Positions 1-18,962 of a stretch of DNA of 24,000 nt are shown here, one piece after another. This DNA is from Thermoanaerobacterales bacterium. GTDB lineage: Bacteria > Bacillota > Thermosediminibacteria > Koleobacterales > Koleobacteraceae. Under the pieces are notes generated by a model, which had not been told where the DNA came from, ran no database searches, and saw nothing but the letters and a program-made list of their open reading frames with translations. The stretch's first letter is position 1. The number at the start of each line of letters is the position of its first letter. The translations under genes and the position numbers were made by a program. Location of the stretch: NCBI GenBank assembly GCA_012839065.1, contig DUOC01000009.1, forward strand, positions 3,923-27,922. Direction: 5' to 3'.

Positions 1-1322
1 TCTACTAATAAAGGTATGTCTTCTATTCGTTTCCTCAAAGGTGGTATAAAAAGAGGGACTACATTAAGTCTATAATACAAATCTTCCCGGAATTTCCCCT
101 GTTTTACAGCTTTTTCTAAATCGAGATTTGTTGCAGCTATAATTCTAACATCAATTTCAACCGCCTTTGTGTCACCAACTCTTACTATTTCTTTTTCATG
201 CAAAACACGTAAAAGCTTTGTCTGTAAATTATATTTTATTTCTCCAATCTCATCTAAAAAAATTGTGCCGCCATTCGCTTGTTCAAATAAGCCTTTCTTA
301 CCCCCTCTTTTTGCACCGGTAAAAGCCCCTTCTATATAGCCGAAAAGCTCACTTTCTAAAAGCGGTTCGGATAAAGCTGTACAATTTACTCTTACAAATT
401 GATTATGTTTTCTTTTGCTTTGATTATGTATAGCATGTGCAAATATCTCTTTCCCTGTACCACTTTCCCCTCTTAGTAATACGGTTGCAGATGTATCTGC
501 TATTCTTTTTGCCTGTTCAATAACTGACTTGATAGATTTACTCTGTCCTATTATATCATCAAAAGTATACTTTGCTTCTAAATGTCGTATAAGCTTTTTA
601 GCTTTGTCAAGTTCTTCATTTAATTTTTTTATTTCTGAAACATCATGTATTACCCCTACACTGCCTTTCAGCTTTCCTTCCACCAAGATTGGGGCTACAT
701 TAACTACTACTTCTTTCTTATTTGGGCCAACTTTCATAGTTACTCCCCAAACAGGTTCCCCTGTTCTTAAAACTTGCATATGCATACTTTCTCCTTCTGC
801 GATATCAACAGTTGCAGGTTTGCCTATAACATCCTTTTCGGTTAAACCTGTCAGACGAGTGTATTCAGGGTTTACAAGGATACCATTTCCATGTTCATCA
901 ACAACTGAAATCGCATCTTGAGTTGAATTTATTATTGCTTTAAACATGCTTTTTATCTCTCTCAAATTAGTCAATTCATCTGCTAATTCTTGTATTCTCG
1001 ACAAATCCCTAAAAATCGCTACTGCACCAATTATCTTTTCTTTTTCCATAATTGGTAATCTGCTAGTTATTATAGTAGCCTCTCCAACTATTTGCTTTTG
1101 ATCTATTTCAGATTTTTTAGTCTTTAAAATAATATGTAAACGTGTATTTGGTATTACTTCTGTAATCGGTTTGCCATAGCTTTCTTTTGCATTTATATTC
1201 AATATCTTTTCAGCATATTTGTTAATGATAGTTATTTCTGCTTTATTGTTTATAGCAATAATTCCGTTGTTAATTGAATCAAGAATTACTCCTATTTCAT
1301 GCTTGCTAATGTTACTATACAT
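1..1322 (-). CDS. sigma-54-dependent transcriptional activator with two PAS-like N-terminal sensor domains; the C-terminus runs off the left edge
   Basis: Absent from the ORF track because it is open to the window edge. My translation from ATG 1322..1320 ([24 protein letters not shown]...) stays open to position 1. In frame it contains Walker A GESGTGKE (447-470), the sigma-54 contact motif GAFTGA (312-329) and a Walker-B-like IFLDEIGE. Confidence 0.85.
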
Positions 1323-3314: not shown

Positions 3315-3390
3315 AGATTATTACCCCGCTATTAATTTATATCTCTATTTATTATTCTTCAGTCTTAATAATTTTATAAAATAGTTAAAA

Positions 3391-3495
3391 TTATAATACT
3401 TGTCCATATGCTTGAATCGTTTTTTTAGATAGATTTTTTGAAGTGCAATATAGAAGGAAGTGATCTATTTGAAATTCAAAATTTGTCAAAAACAA
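3391..3495 (-). pseudogene. remnant of the N-terminus (SAM-like core-binding domain) of a tyrosine recombinase/integrase, 34 codons then a stop
   Basis: My translation is (M)FLTNFEFQIDHFLLYCTSKNLSKKTIQAYGQVL*. GGAGG lies at 3506..3502, 6 nt before TTG 3495..3493. The F-x-x-Y-C-x-S-K-N-L-S-x-K-T-I-x-x-Y pattern is typical of integrase N-termini. The ORF ends after 34 aa and no catalytic domain follows. Confidence 0.4.
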
Positions 3496-3519
3496 AAAAC
3501 ACCTCCTTTCATTGAAATT

Positions 3520-3543
3520 GGTCAAAATCAATCAATTTTAACC
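3520..3543 (-). terminator. weak hairpin downstream of spo0A, a possible terminator
   Basis: On the minus strand GGTTAAAAT-tgattg-ATTTTGACC forms 9 bp including one G-U. The trailing sequence is only modestly U-rich. Confidence 0.25.
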
Positions 3544-3659
3544 ATCCAATAAACTAGAGATGTTTATAACATTAATTTTCTTAAGTTTATAAGTTTACAC
3601 CAGTATACTTTTAAAGAGTTTATAGGCTTTGTATTCTCTGTAACTTTGATATAATTGCT

Positions 3660-9192: not shown

Positions 9193-10014
9193 TTATTTTT
9201 TTATTAAATTTTCATGTGCTATTTTTATAGTTTCTTTAATTATTTTGTCTTTATTTATTCCTGTAAAATTAGTGTTTGATTTTATAAGATGAATCAAATA
9301 TTCTATATTCCCTTTAGGGCCTATAATCGGAGAATAAGTTATGTCATTAAAACTTATATCGTTTTCTTCGCAGAATTGAATGATAGAATTAACTACTTCG
9401 TAATGAGTATTGGGCGATTTGACAACTCCTTTTTTACCCACTTTTTGCCTTTCGGTTTCAAATTGTGGCTTTATAAGTGCTATAATTTCACCTTGTTCTA
9501 TAAGGAGTTTTATTACTGCAGGTATTACTTTTTTGAGTGAAATAAATGAAACATCTATTGTAGCTATATCACATTTTTCACCTATATCATCTAAGTTTAT
9601 ATATCTAATATTTTTTCTTTCAATTGCTACAACTCTGGGGTCATTTCTTAGTTTCCAATCTAACTGTCCATATCCTACATCAATAGCATATACCTTTTTT
9701 GCCCCAAAATTTAACAAACAATGTGTAAATCCGCCTGTAGAAGCTCCTACATCAATTATGACTTTATTTTTAACATTTATATTAAAAACATTTAGTGCTT
9801 TTTCTAACTTTAAACCACCTCTGCTTACGTACGGACAAGAATCGCCTTTTATTTCTATAGCACTTTCAATGTCAACTTCAGTTCCGGGTTTGTCAACTAG
9901 TTTTTTATCTACTAATATCAAGCCAGACATTATTGCTCTTTTAGCTTTTTCTCTACTTTCATATAATCCCCTTGTTACAAGGAGACAATCAAGCCTTTGC
10001 TTCTTTGAATTCAA
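9193..10014 (-). CDS. tlyA: TlyA-family rRNA 2'-O-methyltransferase (S4 domain plus FtsJ-like methyltransferase domain)
   Basis: RLDCLLVTRGLYESREKAKRAIMSG is S4-like and VIIDVGASTGGFTHCLL is a SAM-binding motif. The track start is GTG 10023. I prefer TTG 10014, which has GGGGTG 6 nt upstream. With either start the gene overlaps the 3' end of dxs. Confidence 0.9.
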   Translation of the reverse strand: MNSKKQRLDCLLVTRGLYESREKAKRAIMSGLILVDKKLVDKPGTEVDIESAIEIKGDSCPYVSRGGLKLEKALNVFNINVKNKVIIDVGASTGGFTHCLLNFGAKKVYAIDVGYGQLDWKLRNDPRVVAIERKNIRYINLDDIGEKCDIATIDVSFISLKKVIPAVIKLLIEQGEIIALIKPQFETERQKVGKKGVVKSPNTHYEVVNSIIQFCEENDISFNDITYSPIIGPKGNIEYLIHLIKSNTNFTGINKDKIIKETIKIAHENLIKK

Positions 10015-11911
10015 AGCTTTCACCCCGTAATAATCTTAAAACACTTTCAACAATTTTTTCGGGTGTTATACCCACTATTTTTAAAAGCTGTTCCCGTGGC
10101 CCATGCTTTATGAAAGCATCCGGAATCCCTAGCCTAACCAATTTTATATCATAAAGTTTTTCCTGTTCAAAAAATTCCAGCACGGCAGATCCAAAACCGC
10201 CCTGCAGTGCATTTTCCTCCACAGTTACAAAATAATTCGAATTTTTATATATTTCCTTTAAAAGCTTACTGTCCAGCGGCTTCAAAAATCTCAAATTAGC
10301 AACACACGCATTTATACCATAATTCATTTTCAAAATATCAGATGCCACAAGCGAGGGATAAACTGTAGAACCAATAGATAATATATTAACATCTTCACCT
10401 TTTCTTAAAATTTCGCCTTTTCCTATTTCGATTTGTACCCATTCTTTTTTATTAATATCATTGATTCCAATCCCAGTGCCTCGAGGATACCTAATTGCTA
10501 CGGGGTTTGATATATTGATCGCAGTTTTAAGTGCACTGCTTAGCTCATTCTCATCTTTGGGAGCCATTAAAACGATATTTGGGATATGTCTAAGATAAGA
10601 CATATCAAAAACACCATGGTGAGTTTCTCCATCTTCTCCTACTATTCCAGCCCTGTCTATAGCAAAAATAACATGTAAGTCTTGAAGACATACATCATGG
10701 AGAATCTGGTCATATGCTCTCTGCAAAAAAGTAGAATAAATTGCTACCACTGGTATAAATCCTTCGGCTGCCATAGCTGCTGCCATCGTAACTGCATTTT
10801 GCTCAGCTATACCAACATCGAAAAATCTATCGGGAAATTTTTGTGAAAATTTTTTTAGCCCTGTACCATCAGACATTGCAGCTGTAACAGCAATAATTTT
10901 TTCGTTTTCTGCACCTAAAGCACATAAGGTTTCCCCAAAAACTTCGGAATACGAAAGAAACTTTGTTTTATTTAAGGATCTACCTGTTTTTTTATTAAAC
11001 GGTCCTACTCCATGATAATAATCGGGATTCCTTTCAGCGTATGGATAACCTTTGCCTTTCTTAGTTATAACATGAATTAGTTTAGGCCCACTGCTTTTTT
11101 TAGCCATTTCTAATGTAGAAATCATCTGACTTATATTATGACCATCTATAGGTCCAAAATACTTAAAGCCTAGTTCTTCAAATAGTATCCCCGGAACGAG
11201 CAAATACTTCAAACCATCTTTTGCTCTTTCGGCAGTTTTAGCCAGTTTTTTGCCTATTGCAGGTATATTTTTTAAAATGGTTTCTATATCAGTTTTTAGT
11301 TTCGAATAGGTTGGATCAATCCTTAGACGCGTTAAATACGATGATAAAGCCCCTATATTATGGGAAATTGACATTTCATTATCATTTAATATCACAATTA
11401 AATTGCTTTTAATATGACCTGCATAATTTAATGCTTCAAAAGACATGCCACCTGTTAATGCTCCATCTCCAATTACAGCTATTACTTCATTTTTTTCGCC
11501 TTTTAGATCTCTTGCTTGTGCAAAACCCACAGCTGCTGATATTGAAGTACTGCTATGACCCGTGTTAAACACATCATGTACACTTTCTGTACGCTTTGGA
11601 AAGCCGCTAATTCCATCATACTTACGAAGCGTTCTAAATTGTTTGAACCTACCAGTTATTAATTTATGGACATAAGACTGATGCCCAACATCCCATATTA
11701 TTTTATCTTCTGGGCTTGAGAATACCTTATGCAATGCAATTGTTAATTCAACTACCCCTAAATTTGAAGCCAAATGCCCCCCGTTAGCCGAAACTGTATC
11801 TATTATATACTGACGAATTTCTTGAGATAAAATTTCAAGCTCTGTATAACTTAATCTTTTTATATCTTCAGGGCTATTAACACATTTTATTAAATTATAT
11901 TCTATACTCAT
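9989..11911 (-). CDS. dxs: 1-deoxy-D-xylulose-5-phosphate synthase
   Basis: 640 aa with typical DXS motifs: GGHLASNLGVVELT, GHSSTSISAAVG and GDGALTGGMSFEALN (TPP binding). Confidence 0.97.
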   Translation of the reverse strand: MSIEYNLIKCVNSPEDIKRLSYTELEILSQEIRQYIIDTVSANGGHLASNLGVVELTIALHKVFSSPEDKIIWDVGHQSYVHKLITGRFKQFRTLRKYDGISGFPKRTESVHDVFNTGHSSTSISAAVGFAQARDLKGEKNEVIAVIGDGALTGGMSFEALNYAGHIKSNLIVILNDNEMSISHNIGALSSYLTRLRIDPTYSKLKTDIETILKNIPAIGKKLAKTAERAKDGLKYLLVPGILFEELGFKYFGPIDGHNISQMISTLEMAKKSSGPKLIHVITKKGKGYPYAERNPDYYHGVGPFNKKTGRSLNKTKFLSYSEVFGETLCALGAENEKIIAVTAAMSDGTGLKKFSQKFPDRFFDVGIAEQNAVTMAAAMAAEGFIPVVAIYSTFLQRAYDQILHDVCLQDLHVIFAIDRAGIVGEDGETHHGVFDMSYLRHIPNIVLMAPKDENELSSALKTAINISNPVAIRYPRGTGIGINDINKKEWVQIEIGKGEILRKGEDVNILSIGSTVYPSLVASDILKMNYGINACVANLRFLKPLDSKLLKEIYKNSNYFVTVEENALQGGFGSAVLEFFEQEKLYDIKLVRLGIPDAFIKHGPREQLLKIVGITPEKIVESVLRLLRGESFEFKEAKA

Positions 11912-12505
11912 TTATTTACGCGCCTTTCCGTTGTTTTGCAGTAGGTTTAATCCCAATTTTTCCTTTAAAAAATATATTAAAATACCGACTTTTAATACAA
12001 TTTGCTTTGATTTTGATATCGCAAAAGTCTTGCCAATAGCCTTTCCACCAACCATTATAGTTGCTATAATACTCGTCATCAATATAGTAAAGATATAATC
12101 ATTATTTTTAATGTCATAGAACCTTAATATTCTATATACTAATGTTGCTCCGGCAGCACCGCTTAAAGTTCCTGCTATATCTCCAATCACATCATTACAA
12201 AAATTTGATACAATATCTGCATTTCTAATTAAAATGACTGCTTCTTTTGATCCTTTTTGTTTATTTGCAGACATAGCATGGAAAGGAGGTTCATCTGCCG
12301 CGGTTACAGCTACTCCTATAATATCAAACAAAATACCAATAAAAATAATTATTATTAAAATTAAAAAAGCAAATACAACATTTATATTTTTTATCAAATT
12401 CTCTGAAATAAAACTCACAATTAACGTAATGCAAAAAGTCCAAATAAACGCCTTCTTAATCCAGGCCTTTTTATCGTTTTTGCTTTTTACTCTTGATCGT
12501 GCCAA
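11912..12505 (-). CDS. oapA: small polytopic membrane protein (~4 hydrophobic segments, strongly basic N-terminus); candidate OapA, the OLE-associated protein A
   Basis: 197 aa. TTG start 12505..12503 with GGAGG (12517..12513) 7 nt upstream. Its stop codon abuts the dxs ATG. N-terminus is MARSRVKSKNDKKAWIKK. A D-x-x-x-D motif (NDVIGDIAG) matches what I recall as the conserved OapA motif. It lies directly 3' of the structured RNA and 5' of dxs, which is the published OapA position. Confidence 0.7.
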   Translation of the reverse strand: MARSRVKSKNDKKAWIKKAFIWTFCITLIVSFISENLIKNINVVFAFLILIIIIFIGILFDIIGVAVTAADEPPFHAMSANKQKGSKEAVILIRNADIVSNFCNDVIGDIAGTLSGAAGATLVYRILRFYDIKNNDYIFTILMTSIIATIMVGGKAIGKTFAISKSKQIVLKVGILIYFLKEKLGLNLLQNNGKARK

Positions 12506-12529
12506 AAAAAAACCTCCAGAAGATCAATT

Positions 12530-13140
12530 GCAAGGGGATAGATGGTAACATACAAGGTTAATCTTGCGGCTTAAGGTCTAGCAGGATTTCCCAAGCAGTC
12601 ACCTGTTTGTTACCAAACAGGCGGTTTCCCTTTATGTCTGCCTCTGCAAAGTTGCCAAAATGCAGAGCTAGATCACCACTTAGACCACACTGTAATCCCT
12701 TATATGTCTCCACAAAGAGCAGTCTAGGAGCTTTCCTCAACAGTATGATTATTTCCCTAGCCTCTTTTGCAACCAGATTTTCAAAAGGCATAGACTCACT
12801 ATTCAATGGCCGTTGAATAGAAAAGTTTTAAAACCTCTATCCCATCCTGATCACTCAAGGCAGGCTACGCTACACCCAGCACAGCGTCTATACCGGAATG
12901 TAGGTTTACTCATGCAGACAAATCCTTTTGTTGCATAAGTCTCCATGAAAGTGGGGTCAACGCCTACATGCCTTTGCAGATCGCCCCATCTTCCTTAACT
13001 CCCAGCACTGACCCCCGACTGGGCGTCGGCAGCCAACACCAGAAGCTTCATCGATGTGCCCTATGACGGATTTTTAGCCCCGCCTTCAGGAAATAAAATA
13101 CTGACTAGAATACTGCACCATCTATCCACAATTTTTCATT
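12530..13140 (-). ncRNA. ole: large structured noncoding RNA, most likely OLE (ornate, large, extremophilic) RNA; ends approximate
   Basis: This is the only long noncoding gap in the gene train. By hand count, G+C is 34/60 at 12841-12900 and 35/60 at 12961-13020, against clearly AT-rich flanks. A perfect 11-bp closing helix pairs 13127..13117 (GGATAGATGGT) with 12546..12536 (ACCATCTATCC). Internal hairpins lie at 12909-12939 (13 bp, AGGA loop), 12799-12820 (8 bp), 12642-12667 (7 bp) and 12602-12621 (7 bp), and a further helix pairs 13009-13015 with 12953-12959. The size (~600 nt) and the ispA...oapA-dxs context match OLE. Confidence 0.8.
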
Positions 13141-13150
13141 ATTATAGCTT

Positions 13151-13178
13151 ATTATAGCATATTCTTAACTTTATTCAA
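13151..13178 (-). promoter_or_regulatory. sigma-A-type promoter directly upstream of the structured RNA
   Basis: On the minus strand, TTGAAT (13178..13173), a 16-nt spacer, then TGcTATAAT (extended -10; TATAAT at 13156..13151). It begins just after the stop codon of the upstream gene. The predicted TSS near 13144 is about 17 nt before the closing helix. Confidence 0.5.
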
Positions 13179-13179
13179 G

Positions 13180-13635
13180 TCATATGATAATATTAGCAAT
13201 TAAAATGCCCCATAAGCCTCCAACTAAGACTTCTATAGGGGTGTGACCGATCAGTTCTTTAAGTTTATCTTCTTTAATTATTCTTTTTTGCTGAAACAAT
13301 TCACTAATAATTATATTAATTATTTCAGCGTGTCTCCCTGCAGACCTTCTGACACCTGCTGCGTCATACATTACAATTAAAGCTAATACAACAGCCAATG
13401 CAGTAATTGGTGAATGCCAGCCCTCGATTTTACCTATAGCAGTTGCAATAGATGTTACCATCGCTGAGTGAGAACTTGGCATACCTCCAGCAGTTATTAA
13501 CATTTTTATATCAAATCTTTTTGTTAGCAGTATCATAACCAATATTTTCATTATCTGTGCTGTAAGCCAAGCAAAAAGTGCTGTAACTAATATTGGATTT
13601 TTAAGAAGCATAATTAATTCGCGCAATATTTTCAT
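13180..13635 (-). CDS. divergent PAP2-family membrane protein (DUF212; acid phosphatase / vanadium haloperoxidase-related, YuiD-like)
   Basis: 151 aa with the GGMPSSHSA motif and YDAAGVRRxxGxHA, which I recognise as the DUF212 signature. It has several hydrophobic helices. Confidence 0.85.
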   Translation of the reverse strand: MKILRELIMLLKNPILVTALFAWLTAQIMKILVMILLTKRFDIKMLITAGGMPSSHSAMVTSIATAIGKIEGWHSPITALAVVLALIVMYDAAGVRRSAGRHAEIINIIISELFQQKRIIKEDKLKELIGHTPIEVLVGGLWGILIANIII

Positions 13636-13643
13636 TCCTTATT

Positions 13644-14528
13644 TTAGAATTCACGAGTAAGTAAATAATCTGGCAGCAAGTTAAAAAACGTTCCTTTTTC
13701 TCCAAAACTGCCTGCAATTTCTTTTGCTTCATCTGCAAGTTTATGTGCAATACTATAAGTTTTATCAATACCACATAATCTCGGATATGTAGCTTTTTTG
13801 TTTTTTATATCACTGCCAACAGGCTTGCCAATTTTTTTAATGTCACCCTCCAAGTCTAATAAATCATCAGTTATTTGAAATAACAGCCCTAACTTTTCTG
13901 CGTATTTTGTAAGCATATTTAATTGTTCCTCTGACGCATCAAAATATATTGCCCCTGCTCTTATTGAGGCATTTATTAATGCAGCTGTTTTGTTTATATG
14001 TATGTATTCTAATGTGCTAATATTTATTTGTTTCCCTTCAGATTCTAAATCAACTACCTGTCCCCCAATCATGCCTTTTGTACCACAAGACCTGGCAAGT
14101 TCATTTATTATTTGAAGTATTTTATGGGAATTTACTTTATTTTGTTCATTAGAAATAATTTCAAATGCCATTGTCAGCAAAGCATCACCTGCAAGAATAG
14201 CAATTTCTTCTCCAAAAACCTTATGGTTTGTTAGTTTCCCTCTCCTATAATTATCATTGTCCAAAGCCGGTAAGTCATCATGTATTAGAGAGTAGGTATG
14301 TATTAGTTCTACTCCACAAGCTATTGGTATTACATCCTGAAAAGAGCCTCCTACAGTTTCTGCGCTTGCCATTACCAAAATAGGACGTATTCTTTTACCT
14401 CCCGAAAAAATACTATACCTTATCGATTTATGTATTATGTTTGGATATTCACTATCATATGGAAGCAATTTATCTAACGACTCATCAATAATAGCTTTTC
14501 TTTCTGATAAATATTGACGCAAATTCAT
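13644..14528 (-). CDS. ispA: farnesyl/geranyl diphosphate synthase (short-chain polyprenyl synthase)
   Basis: First Asp-rich motif is IHDDLPALDNDNYRRG and the second is FQITDDLLD. The track start at 14594 overlaps xseB by 59 nt. The internal Met (MNLRQYL..., codon 23, start 14528) lies just after the xseB stop and downstream of GGAGGA. Confidence 0.93.
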   Translation of the reverse strand: MNLRQYLSERKAIIDESLDKLLPYDSEYPNIIHKSIRYSIFSGGKRIRPILVMASAETVGGSFQDVIPIACGVELIHTYSLIHDDLPALDNDNYRRGKLTNHKVFGEEIAILAGDALLTMAFEIISNEQNKVNSHKILQIINELARSCGTKGMIGGQVVDLESEGKQINISTLEYIHINKTAALINASIRAGAIYFDASEEQLNMLTKYAEKLGLLFQITDDLLDLEGDIKKIGKPVGSDIKNKKATYPRLCGIDKTYSIAHKLADEAKEIAGSFGEKGTFFNLLPDYLLTREF

Positions 14529-18350: not shown

Positions 18351-18962
18351 TTATTTCATAGGTAAAACTTTTATTTTATAAGCAGGAATATTCAAAACAG
18401 TTTCAGCAGCATTTGTAAGCATCTCCTTAACAATTGAATTATCTGCTCCTTCTGCTATAATAATAACTCCTTCAATCTGAGGGCTAATTTTCCTTATAAC
18501 CACAGGTTTTTCATGGCCACTTTGCTCCCTAATTACAACTACCTGTTTGCTTGTGATAAGTTCTGTAACATACCTAATACCGCCTTGTGTATCTTCTTCT
18601 TCCGTAGTTTTTTTTGTCTCTTGTATATTATAAGCAGGCTCGATTTCTTCTGTCGATTTAAGCGTTAACATTACTTCTACTTTTCCTGCACCATTGATAT
18701 GGTTTAAAATTTCTTTCAATTGTCGTTCAATTATAGCTTTTGTTTCTTCTTTATAAATTGTATCAGACATATTTTCTGCTGTATTAATATGCAATCCCTC
18801 ATTTTTTTCTTTTTTAGGATTGCTAAGAAAAAAGCTGCTTGAAAGTAGTATAATTATACCAATAAGTAAATATGTGAAAATTTTGTTAATATTTTTCCCT
18901 TGCGAACTGCTTATTTTTTTAATAAAATCACTATATTTTCTTAACAGGCTCATATTATTCAT
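18351..18962 (-). CDS. spoIIIAG: stage III sporulation protein AG (ring-forming)
   Basis: 203 aa with an N-terminal TM helix. The C-terminal ring-building region is VEVMLTL...PQIEGVIIIAEGADNSIVKEML...KIKVLPMK. The ORF overlaps spoIIIAF by 8 nt. Confidence 0.9.
   Translation of the reverse strand: MNNMSLLRKYSDFIKKISSSQGKNINKIFTYLLIGIIILLSSSFFLSNPKKEKNEGLHINTAENMSDTIYKEETKAIIERQLKEILNHINGAGKVEVMLTLKSTEEIEPAYNIQETKKTTEEEDTQGGIRYVTELITSKQVVVIREQSGHEKPVVIRKISPQIEGVIIIAEGADNSIVKEMLTNAAETVLNIPAYKIKVLPMK

Follow-up and report, generated by a model that had tools for sequence, protein, structure and literature searches.

[quoted passage not shown] Work on these organisms has shown that OLE dimerises via contacts of the loops L4, L5/L6/L7 and L9 (PMC12286853, PMC12265935). 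According to the same class literature, the protein OapA holds OLE at the membrane, and the RNA also binds OapB, OapC and the ribosomal protein bS21 (PMC12265935). Moreover, OLE is needed for growth under cold, in the presence of short-chain alcohols or excess Mg2+, and on poor carbon sources. Published counts of the class stand at 2,846 hits in GTDB (PMC11332333) and 8,585 non-redundant sequences (PMC12286853).

Besides the full-length RNAs, such as those of H. halodurans, Clostridium acetobutylicum and C. botulinum, two variants with the same core conserved nucleotides have been described: in variant 1, P7, P8 and P9 are short and the OapB site is often missing, while variant 2 lacks P7 and P8. 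GOLLD, ROOL and the raiA motif are, like OLE, large and highly structured, and the first two are also homo-oligomeric. However, the three are unrelated to OLE in sequence and structural model, and the contexts of GOLLD and ROOL are phages and prophages. None of their Rfam families has a match in the 24,000-nucleotide stretch of DNA analysed here (hereafter, the window).

Identity and extent of the RNA

The minus strand of the window, from 13137 to 12526, almost certainly contains an ole gene, coding for a standard full-length OLE RNA, from an uncultured member of the Bacillota that forms spores. The Rfam covariance model of OLE (RF01071) aligns to this segment from position 1 to position 616 of its 616 positions, untruncated, with a score of 502.9 bits and an E-value of 5.5e-145, while the gathering score of the family is 50 bits. 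The gene as we define it (12526..13137, minus strand, ~610 nt) is based on this match, on its predicted fold and on its relatives. A preliminary description of the same DNA had proposed an OLE-type RNA at 12530-13140, citing RF01071, and had named the covariance-model search as the way to check it. The search bore out both the call and the accession; the proposed ends lie 3-4 nt off those of the Rfam match. The fallback offered there, a large and as yet undescribed RNA occupying the OLE niche, can be dropped; the OLE element at this locus is already known, not new.

RF01071 is the sole Rfam match across the 24-kb window. Other Rfam families (such as a riboswitch or leader of oapA or dxs, or a group II intron) were rejected, as RF01071 alone reaches the gathering threshold, and a tRNA/tmRNA scan of the window returned nothing. 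As the alignment is full-length and the covariation described below is independent of it, we exclude that the match is an artefact of the covariance model. The OLE identity is near certain, and no evidence was counted against it.

Other characteristics of the segment can also be read directly from its composition and predicted fold. As had been claimed, there is no credible open reading frame in 12506-13179: the only frames that reach 60 aa are 12558..12806 (minus strand, 82 aa) and 12607..12816 (plus strand, 69 aa), and both begin with TTG. The sharp rise in G+C over AT-rich flanks is likewise real, with values of 0.425-0.505 across 12500-13099 versus 0.255-0.375 in the flanking genes (200-nt windows). 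OLE explains this puzzling gap of ~670 nt, gene-free and G+C-rich. The minimum free energy (MFE) of the ole region is -229.1 kcal/mol (z = -10.6 relative to shuffles), and P1, P3 and the main hairpins all appear in the single-sequence fold.

In the Rfam alignment, nearly all the highly conserved positions of the OLE model are intact in the window copy. Its ~88% column identity to the ole of two close relatives (loci L085 and L087), whose OapA proteins are 84% and 76% identical to that of the window, is interrupted by differences that cluster in variable hairpins. The length of ~610 nt, the end-to-end match to the model and the presence of P1 are all shared with full-length OLE RNAs, and so is the type of host, an anaerobic spore-forming member of the Bacillota. 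In the present case, the host lineage consists of spore-forming Bacillota known from metagenomes only, which fits the host range of OLE, typically anaerobes or extremophiles among the Bacillota; the sporulation genes spo0A, spoIVB and spoIIIAA-AH lie within the window.

Helices, loops and protein-binding sites

The terminal stem of OLE is named P1 in the published model (PMC3413148, PMC12265935). In the window, its 5′ strand, GGAUAGAUGGU (13117..13127, minus strand), pairs with its 3′ strand, ACCAUCUAUCC (12536..12546, minus strand), both being assigned from complementarity and covariation. As stated in the preliminary description, the complement is exact over 11 nt (12536-12546 / 13117-13127, GGATAGATGGT / ACCATCTATCC), and 570 nt lie between the arms. 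Its chance expectation had been put at a few percent, an estimate that agrees with 3000 mononucleotide shuffles of 12450-13250, of which 4.6% contained a perfect inverted repeat of 11 nt or more and 1.8% one whose arms are separated by 300 nt or more. At such frequencies, the complement alone is weak evidence, and it is the covariation among homologues that establishes the helix. In 69 distinct OLE sequences, both sides have changed in 10 of the 11 pairs, and the covariation score is 0.509, versus 0.234 in shuffles (0/500 reach 0.509); sliding the partner gives no more than 0.217. Similarly, the contiguous run of pairs averages 7.9 bp with the native partner and 4.6 bp with swapped partners (75 loci). 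The ends of OLE in the homologous loci were placed by MAFFT alignment and column-based anchors.

A second long-range helix, P3/P3.1, is formed by AGUAU-U-UUAUUUCC (13089..13102, minus strand) and GGAAAUAA-UC-AUACU (12742..12756, minus strand), as indicated by sequence, duplex energies and the MFE fold. It consists of 5 + 8 = 13 bp, against the 12 that are typical of full-length OLE, with a 1x2 internal loop, and it encloses P4-P9 (domain 1). Across 75 loci, the P3 duplex has an energy of -11.5 kcal/mol with native strands versus -5.4 when the strands are swapped between species, and the native partner falls within the best 10% in 64 of them. P3 is the helix that has been proposed to span the membrane (PMC12265935). 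The structure line of the Rfam family leaves P1 unpaired and carries no annotation of P3, so the covariation check in orthologous loci that had been suggested supports two helices absent from that line. Given that both covary (69-75 sequences), scans that rely on the structure line only would under-report the closing helix.

Within domain 1, the P4 hairpin (13065..13084, minus strand; Rfam model 54-73) ends in the A-rich loop GCUAAAAA, which corresponds to the conserved CUAAAAAU loop of the family. L4 constitutes dimer bridge B1 (PMC12286853, PMC12265935). It is followed by a long hairpin, P5/P5.1 (12999..13045, minus strand; Rfam model 93-139), with one non-canonical pair and the loop GCCCA (13020-13024). 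The upstream flank of P5, J4a/5, reads GGGCACAUCGAUGAAG and is identical to the highly conserved consensus; in the class it forms part of the k-turn that is bound by OapC (PMC9723947, PMC12286853). Further on, L6 is AAAGGCAUG, which contains GGC, and the long P9 arm (12760..12861, minus strand; Rfam model ~289-385) has the palindrome GGCC (12808-12811) in its distal loop, at the centre of the inverted repeat 12799-12809 / 12810-12820. A GGCC L9 loop makes the symmetric kissing loop known as bridge B3 (PMC12286853). In the alignment, L4, L5 (GCCCA), L6 and L9 (CGGCCA) all fall at the conserved model positions of the dimerisation loops, of which L5 and L6 are complementary to each other in the class.

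The 3′ part of the RNA contains two hairpins with GNRA loops. P13 (12642..12667, minus strand; Rfam block model 83-104) has the loop GCAA (12652-12655), and P14.1 (12602..12621, minus strand), identified in the Rfam alignment, has the tetraloop GUAA. [quoted passage not shown] In the window, however, the place of the family's single-nucleotide bulge in P13 is taken by an asymmetric loop rich in U (UUUU / UU), and L087 and L085 have different, likewise U-rich arrangements. With this loop and the two non-canonical pairs flagged by Rfam in P13, the binding of OapB at this hairpin is uncertain here.

In summary of these elements, the A-rich L4, the GCCCA L5, the GGCC L9, the k-turn junction and the GNRA loops on P13 and P14.1 are as in full-length OLE, whereas P13 departs from the consensus in its asymmetric loop, the loop of P8 has 5 additional nucleotides, and the putative P7 has 13-14 bp rather than ~17. 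The last of these is a hairpin with an AGGA tetraloop at 12908..12940 (minus strand), which the Rfam alignment covers with model positions 198-243, with deletions and a low posterior probability. Its core had been described as a 13-bp tetraloop hairpin at 12909-12939, and the letters agree: CUUAUGCAACAAA-AGGA-UUUGU(C)UGCAUGAG forms 13 pairs and bulges out a single C, and the MFE fold adds one A-U pair to reach 12908-12940. Judged by its order in the fold, it is most likely P7; its sequence varies among three close relatives. Although the shortened P7 recalls variant 1, we rejected both variants for this RNA, as P7, P8, a full-length P9 and the GNRA loop of P13 are all present, and it is of the full-length type.

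Transcription and the partner gene oapA

The ole gene lies in a train of minus-strand genes in the order xseA, xseB, ispA (FPP synthase), a DUF212 ('divergent PAP2') gene, ole, oapA, dxs, tlyA, nadK, argR and recN; the neighbours xseA-xseB-ispA and dxs-tlyA-nadK-argR-recN had been read correctly from the start. A position next to oapA in an xseAB-ispA...dxs-tlyA-nadK-argR-recN setting, with a proximal sigma-70-type promoter, is another property of full-length OLE. We compared this arrangement with 80 loci from different genomes, retrieved by searching genome contigs with an OapA alignment (the best being 55% identical among the matches listed). OLE is found upstream of the OapA homologue in 79 of them, and the remaining one is cut off, its sequence ending 88 nt before the gene; thus, the pairing holds in every locus where upstream DNA was retrieved. 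The gene ispA is upstream in 68/80 and dxs downstream in 53/80, and a DUF212 gene stands between ispA and ole in 19/80 only.

Directly 5′ of OLE, a consensus scan identifies a sigma-70-type promoter match at 13141..13178 (minus strand, 10/12 positions). It comprises a -35 box TTGAAT (13173-13178), a 16-nt spacer and an extended -10 box TGcTATAAT (13151-13159), and a second TATAAT (13141-13146) has arisen from a short, recent tandem duplication of 8 nt. The match ends 13-14 nt before the first position of the model, and the duplicated -10 box 3-4 nt before it. The block TTGAAT...TGCTATAAT is kept in both close relatives. A proximal ole promoter has been demonstrated experimentally in H. halodurans (PMC3413148). 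Counting consensus matches only, a promoter-like site at a fixed distance occurs in 61 of 79 OLE loci versus 19% in shuffles, and a fixed-distance promoter before P1 is, in consequence, a feature of the family that extends beyond H. halodurans.

We found no terminator-like site between ole and oapA. The only match of the terminator scan within 11800-13800 lies at 12603-12624 and was rejected, because it is the plus-strand reading of P14.1. The spacer between the two genes is 41 nt long, the shortest among the 75 compared, and it lacks the terminator-like hairpin that is present in 21 of the 75. It is probable that ole and oapA are co-transcribed from the proximal promoter, with the addition of any read-through from xseA-ispA.

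The gene downstream of ole (11912..12505, minus strand) codes for a 197-aa membrane protein with a TTG start and a Shine-Dalgarno sequence GGAGG at 12513-12517. It begins 21 nt past the Rfam match and 31 nt past P1, and its ribosome-binding site starts 19 nt past the closing helix. On the grounds of its homologues (3513), its motif and its fold, the protein, called a small membrane protein in the preliminary description, is OapA, which is the defining partner of OLE. Its exact sequence is present on 45 metagenome contigs, and a 99%-identical OapA comes from a MAG named 'Thermoanaerobacterales bacterium'. The DxxxD motif of OapA, located in a transmembrane helix and defined in PMC11332333, is here DVIGD (residues 105-109); it sits in an invariant NFCNDxxGD block, and D105, G108 and D109 are invariant among 20 diverse homologues. 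From family membership and gene adjacency, the protein would be expected to bind the OLE RNA and tether it to the membrane.

A relation of OapA to CorB/CorC has previously been reported (PMC11332333), and the protein of the window is consistent with it. The only domain signal, PF01595 (CNNM), scores 20.8 bits, below the cut-off of 28.4. The AlphaFold model is all-helical and of moderate confidence (pLDDT 75.7), and its best folds in the PDB are MtCorB (7M1T, 7M1U) and the transmembrane domain of CorC (7CFG), although these Foldseek matches are weak (E 1.4e-2 to 0.14, TM 0.45-0.52). A profile search of PDB sequences with OapA gave nothing meaningful, with one match at E 0.8, so the relationship is visible from fold comparison only. 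Thus, OapA has the sub-threshold PF01595 signal and the CorB/CorC fold in common with the CNNM proteins (DUF21, PF01595) MpfA, CorB and CorC. Unlike them, it has no cytosolic CBS or CorC_HlyC domains, has the DVIGD motif, and contains about four hydrophobic helices versus three in CorB.

Function of the particle and rival readings

Hypotheses on the role of OLE in the literature include transporter regulation, a ribozyme, a signalling hub called 'bTOR' and a membrane-spanning RNA. The mechanism that we favour for the window, if only tentatively, is the regulation of the putative transporter OapA by an RNA scaffold. In this model, the OLE RNA of the window would fold and dimerise, and the particle would be anchored in the membrane by OapA dimers docked beside P3. 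OapA itself may be a stripped-down CNNM/CorB-type divalent-cation transporter domain, whose activity would be gated or reported by the RNA acting as a large regulatory scaffold, with effects on the Mg2+/Mn2+ balance. The same scaffold might couple the activity of OapA to the translation and regulatory proteins that are bound to it.

It is also possible, though somewhat improbable in our opinion, that the OLE particle is primarily a general stress hub ('bTOR') that sequesters or presents bS21, ArgR and other proteins, cation transport being secondary. This would account for the pleiotropic phenotypes of knock-outs and for the reported binding of bS21 (PMC12054373, PMC12265935), and the presence of argR, tlyA, nusB and efp in the same gene train as ole agrees with published observations that ole clusters with genes for translation and regulation. 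Such clustering is, however, circumstantial, and the only universal partner linked in cis is the transporter-like OapA. In addition, the occurrence of OLE is anticorrelated with that of MpfA, which truly exports Mg2+ (PMC11332333), and this suggests that the core role of OLE is in ion homeostasis. In any case, the hub and the ion-homeostasis readings are not mutually exclusive.

We consider it unlikely that OLE is a ribozyme catalysing some membrane reaction, with OapA merely as its anchor. The size of the RNA, its share of invariant nucleotides and its complexity do resemble those of known large ribozymes (PMC11332333, PMC12265935), and the window copy retains those conserved positions. Nevertheless, catalysis, splicing or self-cleavage has not been observed in nearly 20 years, no spliced or cleaved OLE products have been reported (PMC3413148), and cryo-EM has revealed a dimer that forms a flat scaffold, with pockets for proteins and no obvious active site (PMC12286853).

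More doubtful still is the idea that the particle in the window, L085 and L087 is assembled unlike that of H. halodurans, OapB binding differently or not at all after the loss of the P13 bulge and ole-oapA being obligatorily a single transcript. Under that assumption, the short, terminator-free spacer would yield one ole-oapA transcript and favour the co-transcriptional loading of newly made OapA in cis. If true, this would represent a modest, lineage-specific variation in a known system.

Some of the same departures could be taken as signs of a relic, that is, a decaying or non-functional copy held in place by linkage to essential neighbours: the putative P7 falls short of the consensus length, P13 breaks the family's bulge rule, and the promoter region has a recent 8-nt duplication. 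This is very improbable, as the alignment spans the entire model at a score far exceeding the threshold, hardly any of the highly conserved positions have been lost, and both P1 and P3 are intact. Furthermore, the RNA keeps ~88% column identity in relatives that share only 76-84% identity with the window in OapA, natural variants of OLE dispense with P7 and P8 (PMC11332333), and the oapA gene shows no damage, has a good ribosome-binding site and codes for the very protein recorded on the 45 contigs mentioned above.

Finally, the two open reading frames do exist at the locus, but the chance that either is a real gene and the RNA structure incidental is negligible, the comparison with relatives having already refuted the small-protein reading. 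The stretch of the 82-aa frame contains three and four single-nucleotide indels and five and two in-frame stops in the two closest relatives, respectively, its substitutions are flat by codon position (9/7/9 and 13/11/11), and in the OLE model it corresponds to positions that are paired and covary. Gene callers annotated nothing there on identical metagenome contigs, and the region holds no conserved reading frame. Of the observations that the preliminary description had named as counting against OLE, none was made: the match is significant, P1 and P3 covary and the frame is broken.

The copy in the window is one more full-length OLE among thousands and adds very little to OLE biology. What it does provide is the placement of the ole-oapA module in a spore-forming lineage of the Bacillota that is known from metagenomes only.

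Identity and coding potential of the intergenic element

The gap lying between the DUF212 stop codon (13180) and the next gene on the minus strand, which starts at 12505, had been assigned, in a preliminary description made from the sequence alone, to an OLE (ornate, large, extremophilic) RNA at 12530-13140. The Rfam test proposed there supports this reading. When the whole window was scanned against Rfam 15, the OLE family, RF01071 (gathering score 50), matched 13137..12526 (-) over its full length (model positions 1-616 of 616, 502.9 bits, E 5.5e-145), and no other Rfam family was matched in the entire window. Folded alone, the ole gene reaches -229.1 kcal/mol, 10.6 SD below dinucleotide-preserving shuffles, and this single-sequence fold already holds the closing helix, P3 and the main hairpins. 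OLE is a well-described family and the element is an ordinary member of it, so it must be considered already known. It retains P7 and P8 as well as a long P9 and the P13 loop, and so belongs to the “full-length” type; the same features rule out variants 1 and 2 of Fernando and Breaker (PMC11332333).

The rise in G+C and the lack of a credible ORF noted earlier were also observed: G+C is 0.43-0.51 over 12500-13099 vs 0.26-0.37 in the flanking genes, and the only frames of at least 60 aa in the gap are an 82-aa TTG-start ORF at 12558..12806 (-) and a 69-aa antisense frame. A protein-coding reading of the 82-aa ORF fails when compared with the two closest relatives retrieved, loci L087 and L085 (OapA identity to the window of 84% and 76%, respectively). 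In the homologous stretch there are three (L087) and four (L085) single-nucleotide indels, the window's frame runs through five and two stops, respectively, and substitutions are spread evenly over codon positions.

Closing helix and internal architecture

In the window, P1 (the terminal stem of the published OLE model) is the exact 11-nt complement of 12536-12546 with 13117-13127 that had been proposed to bracket the RNA. The chance expectation of a few percent given for it was accurate: among 3000 shuffled versions of the region, 4.6% have a perfect inverted repeat of 11 nt or longer somewhere, and 1.8% have one whose arms are separated by 300 nt or more. The RF01071 structure line shows no pairing at its first 53 or its last 21 positions and, thus, this bracket lies outside the Rfam annotation. 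PMC3413148 names a P1 stem where OLE RNA begins, and “domain 2” of the RNA consists of P1, P2 and P10-P15 (PMC12265935). With the P1 strands of 75 loci anchored on the invariant adjoining sequence, native strands form a mean of 9.5 of 12 possible pairs (contiguous run, 7.9), as compared with 7.8 pairs (run, 4.6) when strands are swapped between species. The covariation check suggested for the closing helix was likewise positive: over 69 distinct OLE sequences, 10 of 11 pairs change on both sides, 82.9% of P1 cells are paired (67.3% in shuffles; 37-62% with the partner slid by 1-3 columns), and the covariation score is 0.509 vs 0.234 in shuffles (0/500 reach 0.509) and at most 0.217 when slid. 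With its 11 bp, the P1 of the window is among the longer P1 stems of the family, and not exceptional.

P3/P3.1, likewise missing from the Rfam structure line, pairs 13102..13089 with 12756..12742 (-), where AGUAU-U-UUAUUUCC and GGAAAUAA-UC-AUACU form 13 bp with a small internal loop. This fits the published P3 and P3.1, described as ~12 bp with a small bulge and proposed to be a membrane-crossing helix (PMC12265935). Native P3 duplexes have a family mean of -11.5 kcal/mol vs -5.4 kcal/mol for swapped partners, and the native partner ranked in the best tenth in 64 of 75 loci.

Among its loops, the window's OLE also has L4, which is A-rich (GCUAAAAA), L5 (GCCCA), L6 with GGC in it, the distal P9 loop with its palindromic GGCC, and the GNRA loops of P14.1 (GUAA) and of the P13 hairpin (GCAA; 12642-12667 (-)). 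The junction that forms part of the k-turn (GGGCACAUCGAUGAAG) is fully conserved. Cryo-EM and biochemistry have tied the L4/L5/L6/L9 loops, the k-turn junction and the GNRA loops to dimerisation and to OapC/OapB binding (PMC12286853, PMC9723947, PMC7936274). The hairpin described at 12909-12939 does have 13 pairs, with one bulged C and an AGGA loop, and is lengthened by one pair in the MFE fold. This hairpin, the putative P7, is shorter than the OLE consensus and lies in a low-confidence part of the alignment. [quoted passage not shown] The P13 of close relatives is also U-rich, in arrangements that differ from that of the window.

OapA, gene neighbourhood and distribution

The gene downstream of ole (11912..12505 (-)) codes for a 197-aa membrane protein that starts at a TTG seven bases past GGAGG; 3513 homologues of it were found in the protein collection. 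Its AlphaFold model (pLDDT 75.7) best matches, among solved structures, MtCorB (7M1T, 7M1U), an archaeal CNNM protein, and the CorC transmembrane domain (7CFG); 7M1U is the reported top structural match for H. halodurans OapA. Its PF01595 (CNNM) match is only sub-threshold, a relation described for OapA, and its DxxxD motif, which sets OapA apart from CNNM domains (PMC11332333), is DVIGD, within an invariant NFCNDxxGD block. Among at least 80 loci gathered from species-representative genomes by OapA alignment, an OLE homologue lies directly upstream on the same strand in 79 of the 80 listed, and the remaining locus ends 88 nt before the gene. Based on its homologues, motif, CNNM relation, predicted CorB/CorC fold and linkage to OLE, we identify this protein as OapA (OLE-associated protein A).

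The preliminary list of neighbours was right in gene order, and its “small membrane protein” can now be specified as OapA. The minus-strand order is efp, spoIIIAA to spoIIIAH, asp23-family genes, DUF2273, nusB, xseA, xseB, ispA, DUF212 (divergent PAP2), OLE, oapA, dxs, tlyA, nadK, argR, recN, spoIVB, spo0A, a SteA-like gene and an MctB-like gene. In the 80 listed loci, ispA is upstream of OLE in 68 and dxs downstream in 53. A DUF212 gene (13180-13635 (-) in the window) separates ispA from OLE in only 19, a minority but recurring arrangement common to the closest relatives. Additionally, the long tlyA ORF (9193-10023 (-); 276 aa, GTG start, 35-nt overlap with the dxs 3′ end) codes for an S4 RNA-binding domain (residues 9-53). 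The product called automatically on identical metagenome contigs is 245 aa long and without this domain, so that this call is probably truncated at its 5′ end. A 203-aa ORF without Pfam match (18351-18962 (-)) occupies the expected spoIIIAG position between spoIIIAF and spoIIIAH. The only sizeable plus-strand ORF outside genes (529-921 (+), 130 aa, no Pfam match) may not be a real gene. Neither 3315-3659 (345 nt, spo0A to the SteA-like gene) nor 922-1442 (521 nt, from the plus-strand ORF to the MctB-like gene) has an ORF of 60 aa or more, or an Rfam match at the gathering threshold.

Identical copies of the window's OapA and Dxs proteins are found on metagenome-derived contigs only, and a partial OapA (HHU68755.1), 99% identical, comes from a “Thermoanaerobacterales bacterium” MAG. 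The nearest named genera among the matches listed (OapA ~45-55% identical) include Tepidanaerobacter, Thermovorax, Fervidicola, Thermovenabulum and Caloranaerobacter. The sporulation genes of the window fit the spore-forming Bacillota, the known range of OLE. OLE-oapA was also observed in a MAG record given as “Actinomycetota bacterium” (L023) and in one given as “Bacillus subtilis strain DE0224” (L061), in agreement with the few non-Bacillota matches remarked on in PMC11332333; as OLE is unexpected in either, these records are probably mis-binned or mislabelled.

Transcription and possible function

A promoter is predicted directly upstream of OLE at 13178..13151 (-) (TTGAAT, 16-nt spacer, TGcTATAAT), and its -35 and extended -10 are kept in both close relatives. 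A comparable site, usually TTGAnn-17-TATAAT, is found in 61 of 79 OLE loci vs 19% of shuffled controls, the -10 box ending 18-31 nt ahead of the conserved CAGUAU in 46 of these 61. In H. halodurans, the proximal promoter increases OLE expression >100-fold, and 5′ ends map near the P1 start (PMC3413148), an experimental result that the promoter-like sites would generalise to the family. In the window, GCTATAATAA occurs twice in tandem at 13141-13160, giving two overlapping -10 boxes (the second TATAAT at 13146..13141 (-)). L087 and L085 carry a single copy, so the duplication, of 8-10 nt, is recent; it would shift or double the transcription start relative to P1.

The terminator scan found no terminator-like site between OLE and oapA in the window, and the 41-nt spacer is the shortest among the 75 compared, so co-transcription of both genes is likely. 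A terminator-like hairpin followed by a T-run, not present in the window, occupies this spacer in 21 of 75 loci (for instance, at about 2380-2500 of L009, L011, L014, L018, L020, L021, L022, L031, L034, L037, L040, L041, L084 and L006). At least 13 loci of different genera share its stem sequence (GCTGATAGC ... GCTATCAGC), a conservation not usual in plain intrinsic terminators; the hairpin could be a protein-binding or processing site.

The present analysis establishes the identity and architecture of the window's locus, and its function is taken by analogy from other species. In these, OLE RNA is a stable, abundant molecule that forms dimers and binds OapB, OapC and bS21, with OapA tethering it to the membrane; it is required when cells face cold, alcohol, high Mg2+ or poor carbon sources (PMC12265935, PMC12286853, PMC10898510). 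A lineage-specific change in OapB recognition and an obligatory co-transcription of ole and oapA would be minor, unproven additions to this picture. It could alternatively be proposed that OLE RNA is a general signalling hub or a ribozyme. We favour a regulatory scaffold, as OapA is, judging from its model, a minimal CNNM/CorB-like domain and OLE anticorrelates with MpfA, which exports Mg2+ (PMC11332333). Tentatively, and at somewhat less than even confidence, the OLE RNA dimer would scaffold and regulate OapA, which would mediate divalent-cation homeostasis, and this assembly would be coupled to translation-related partners.
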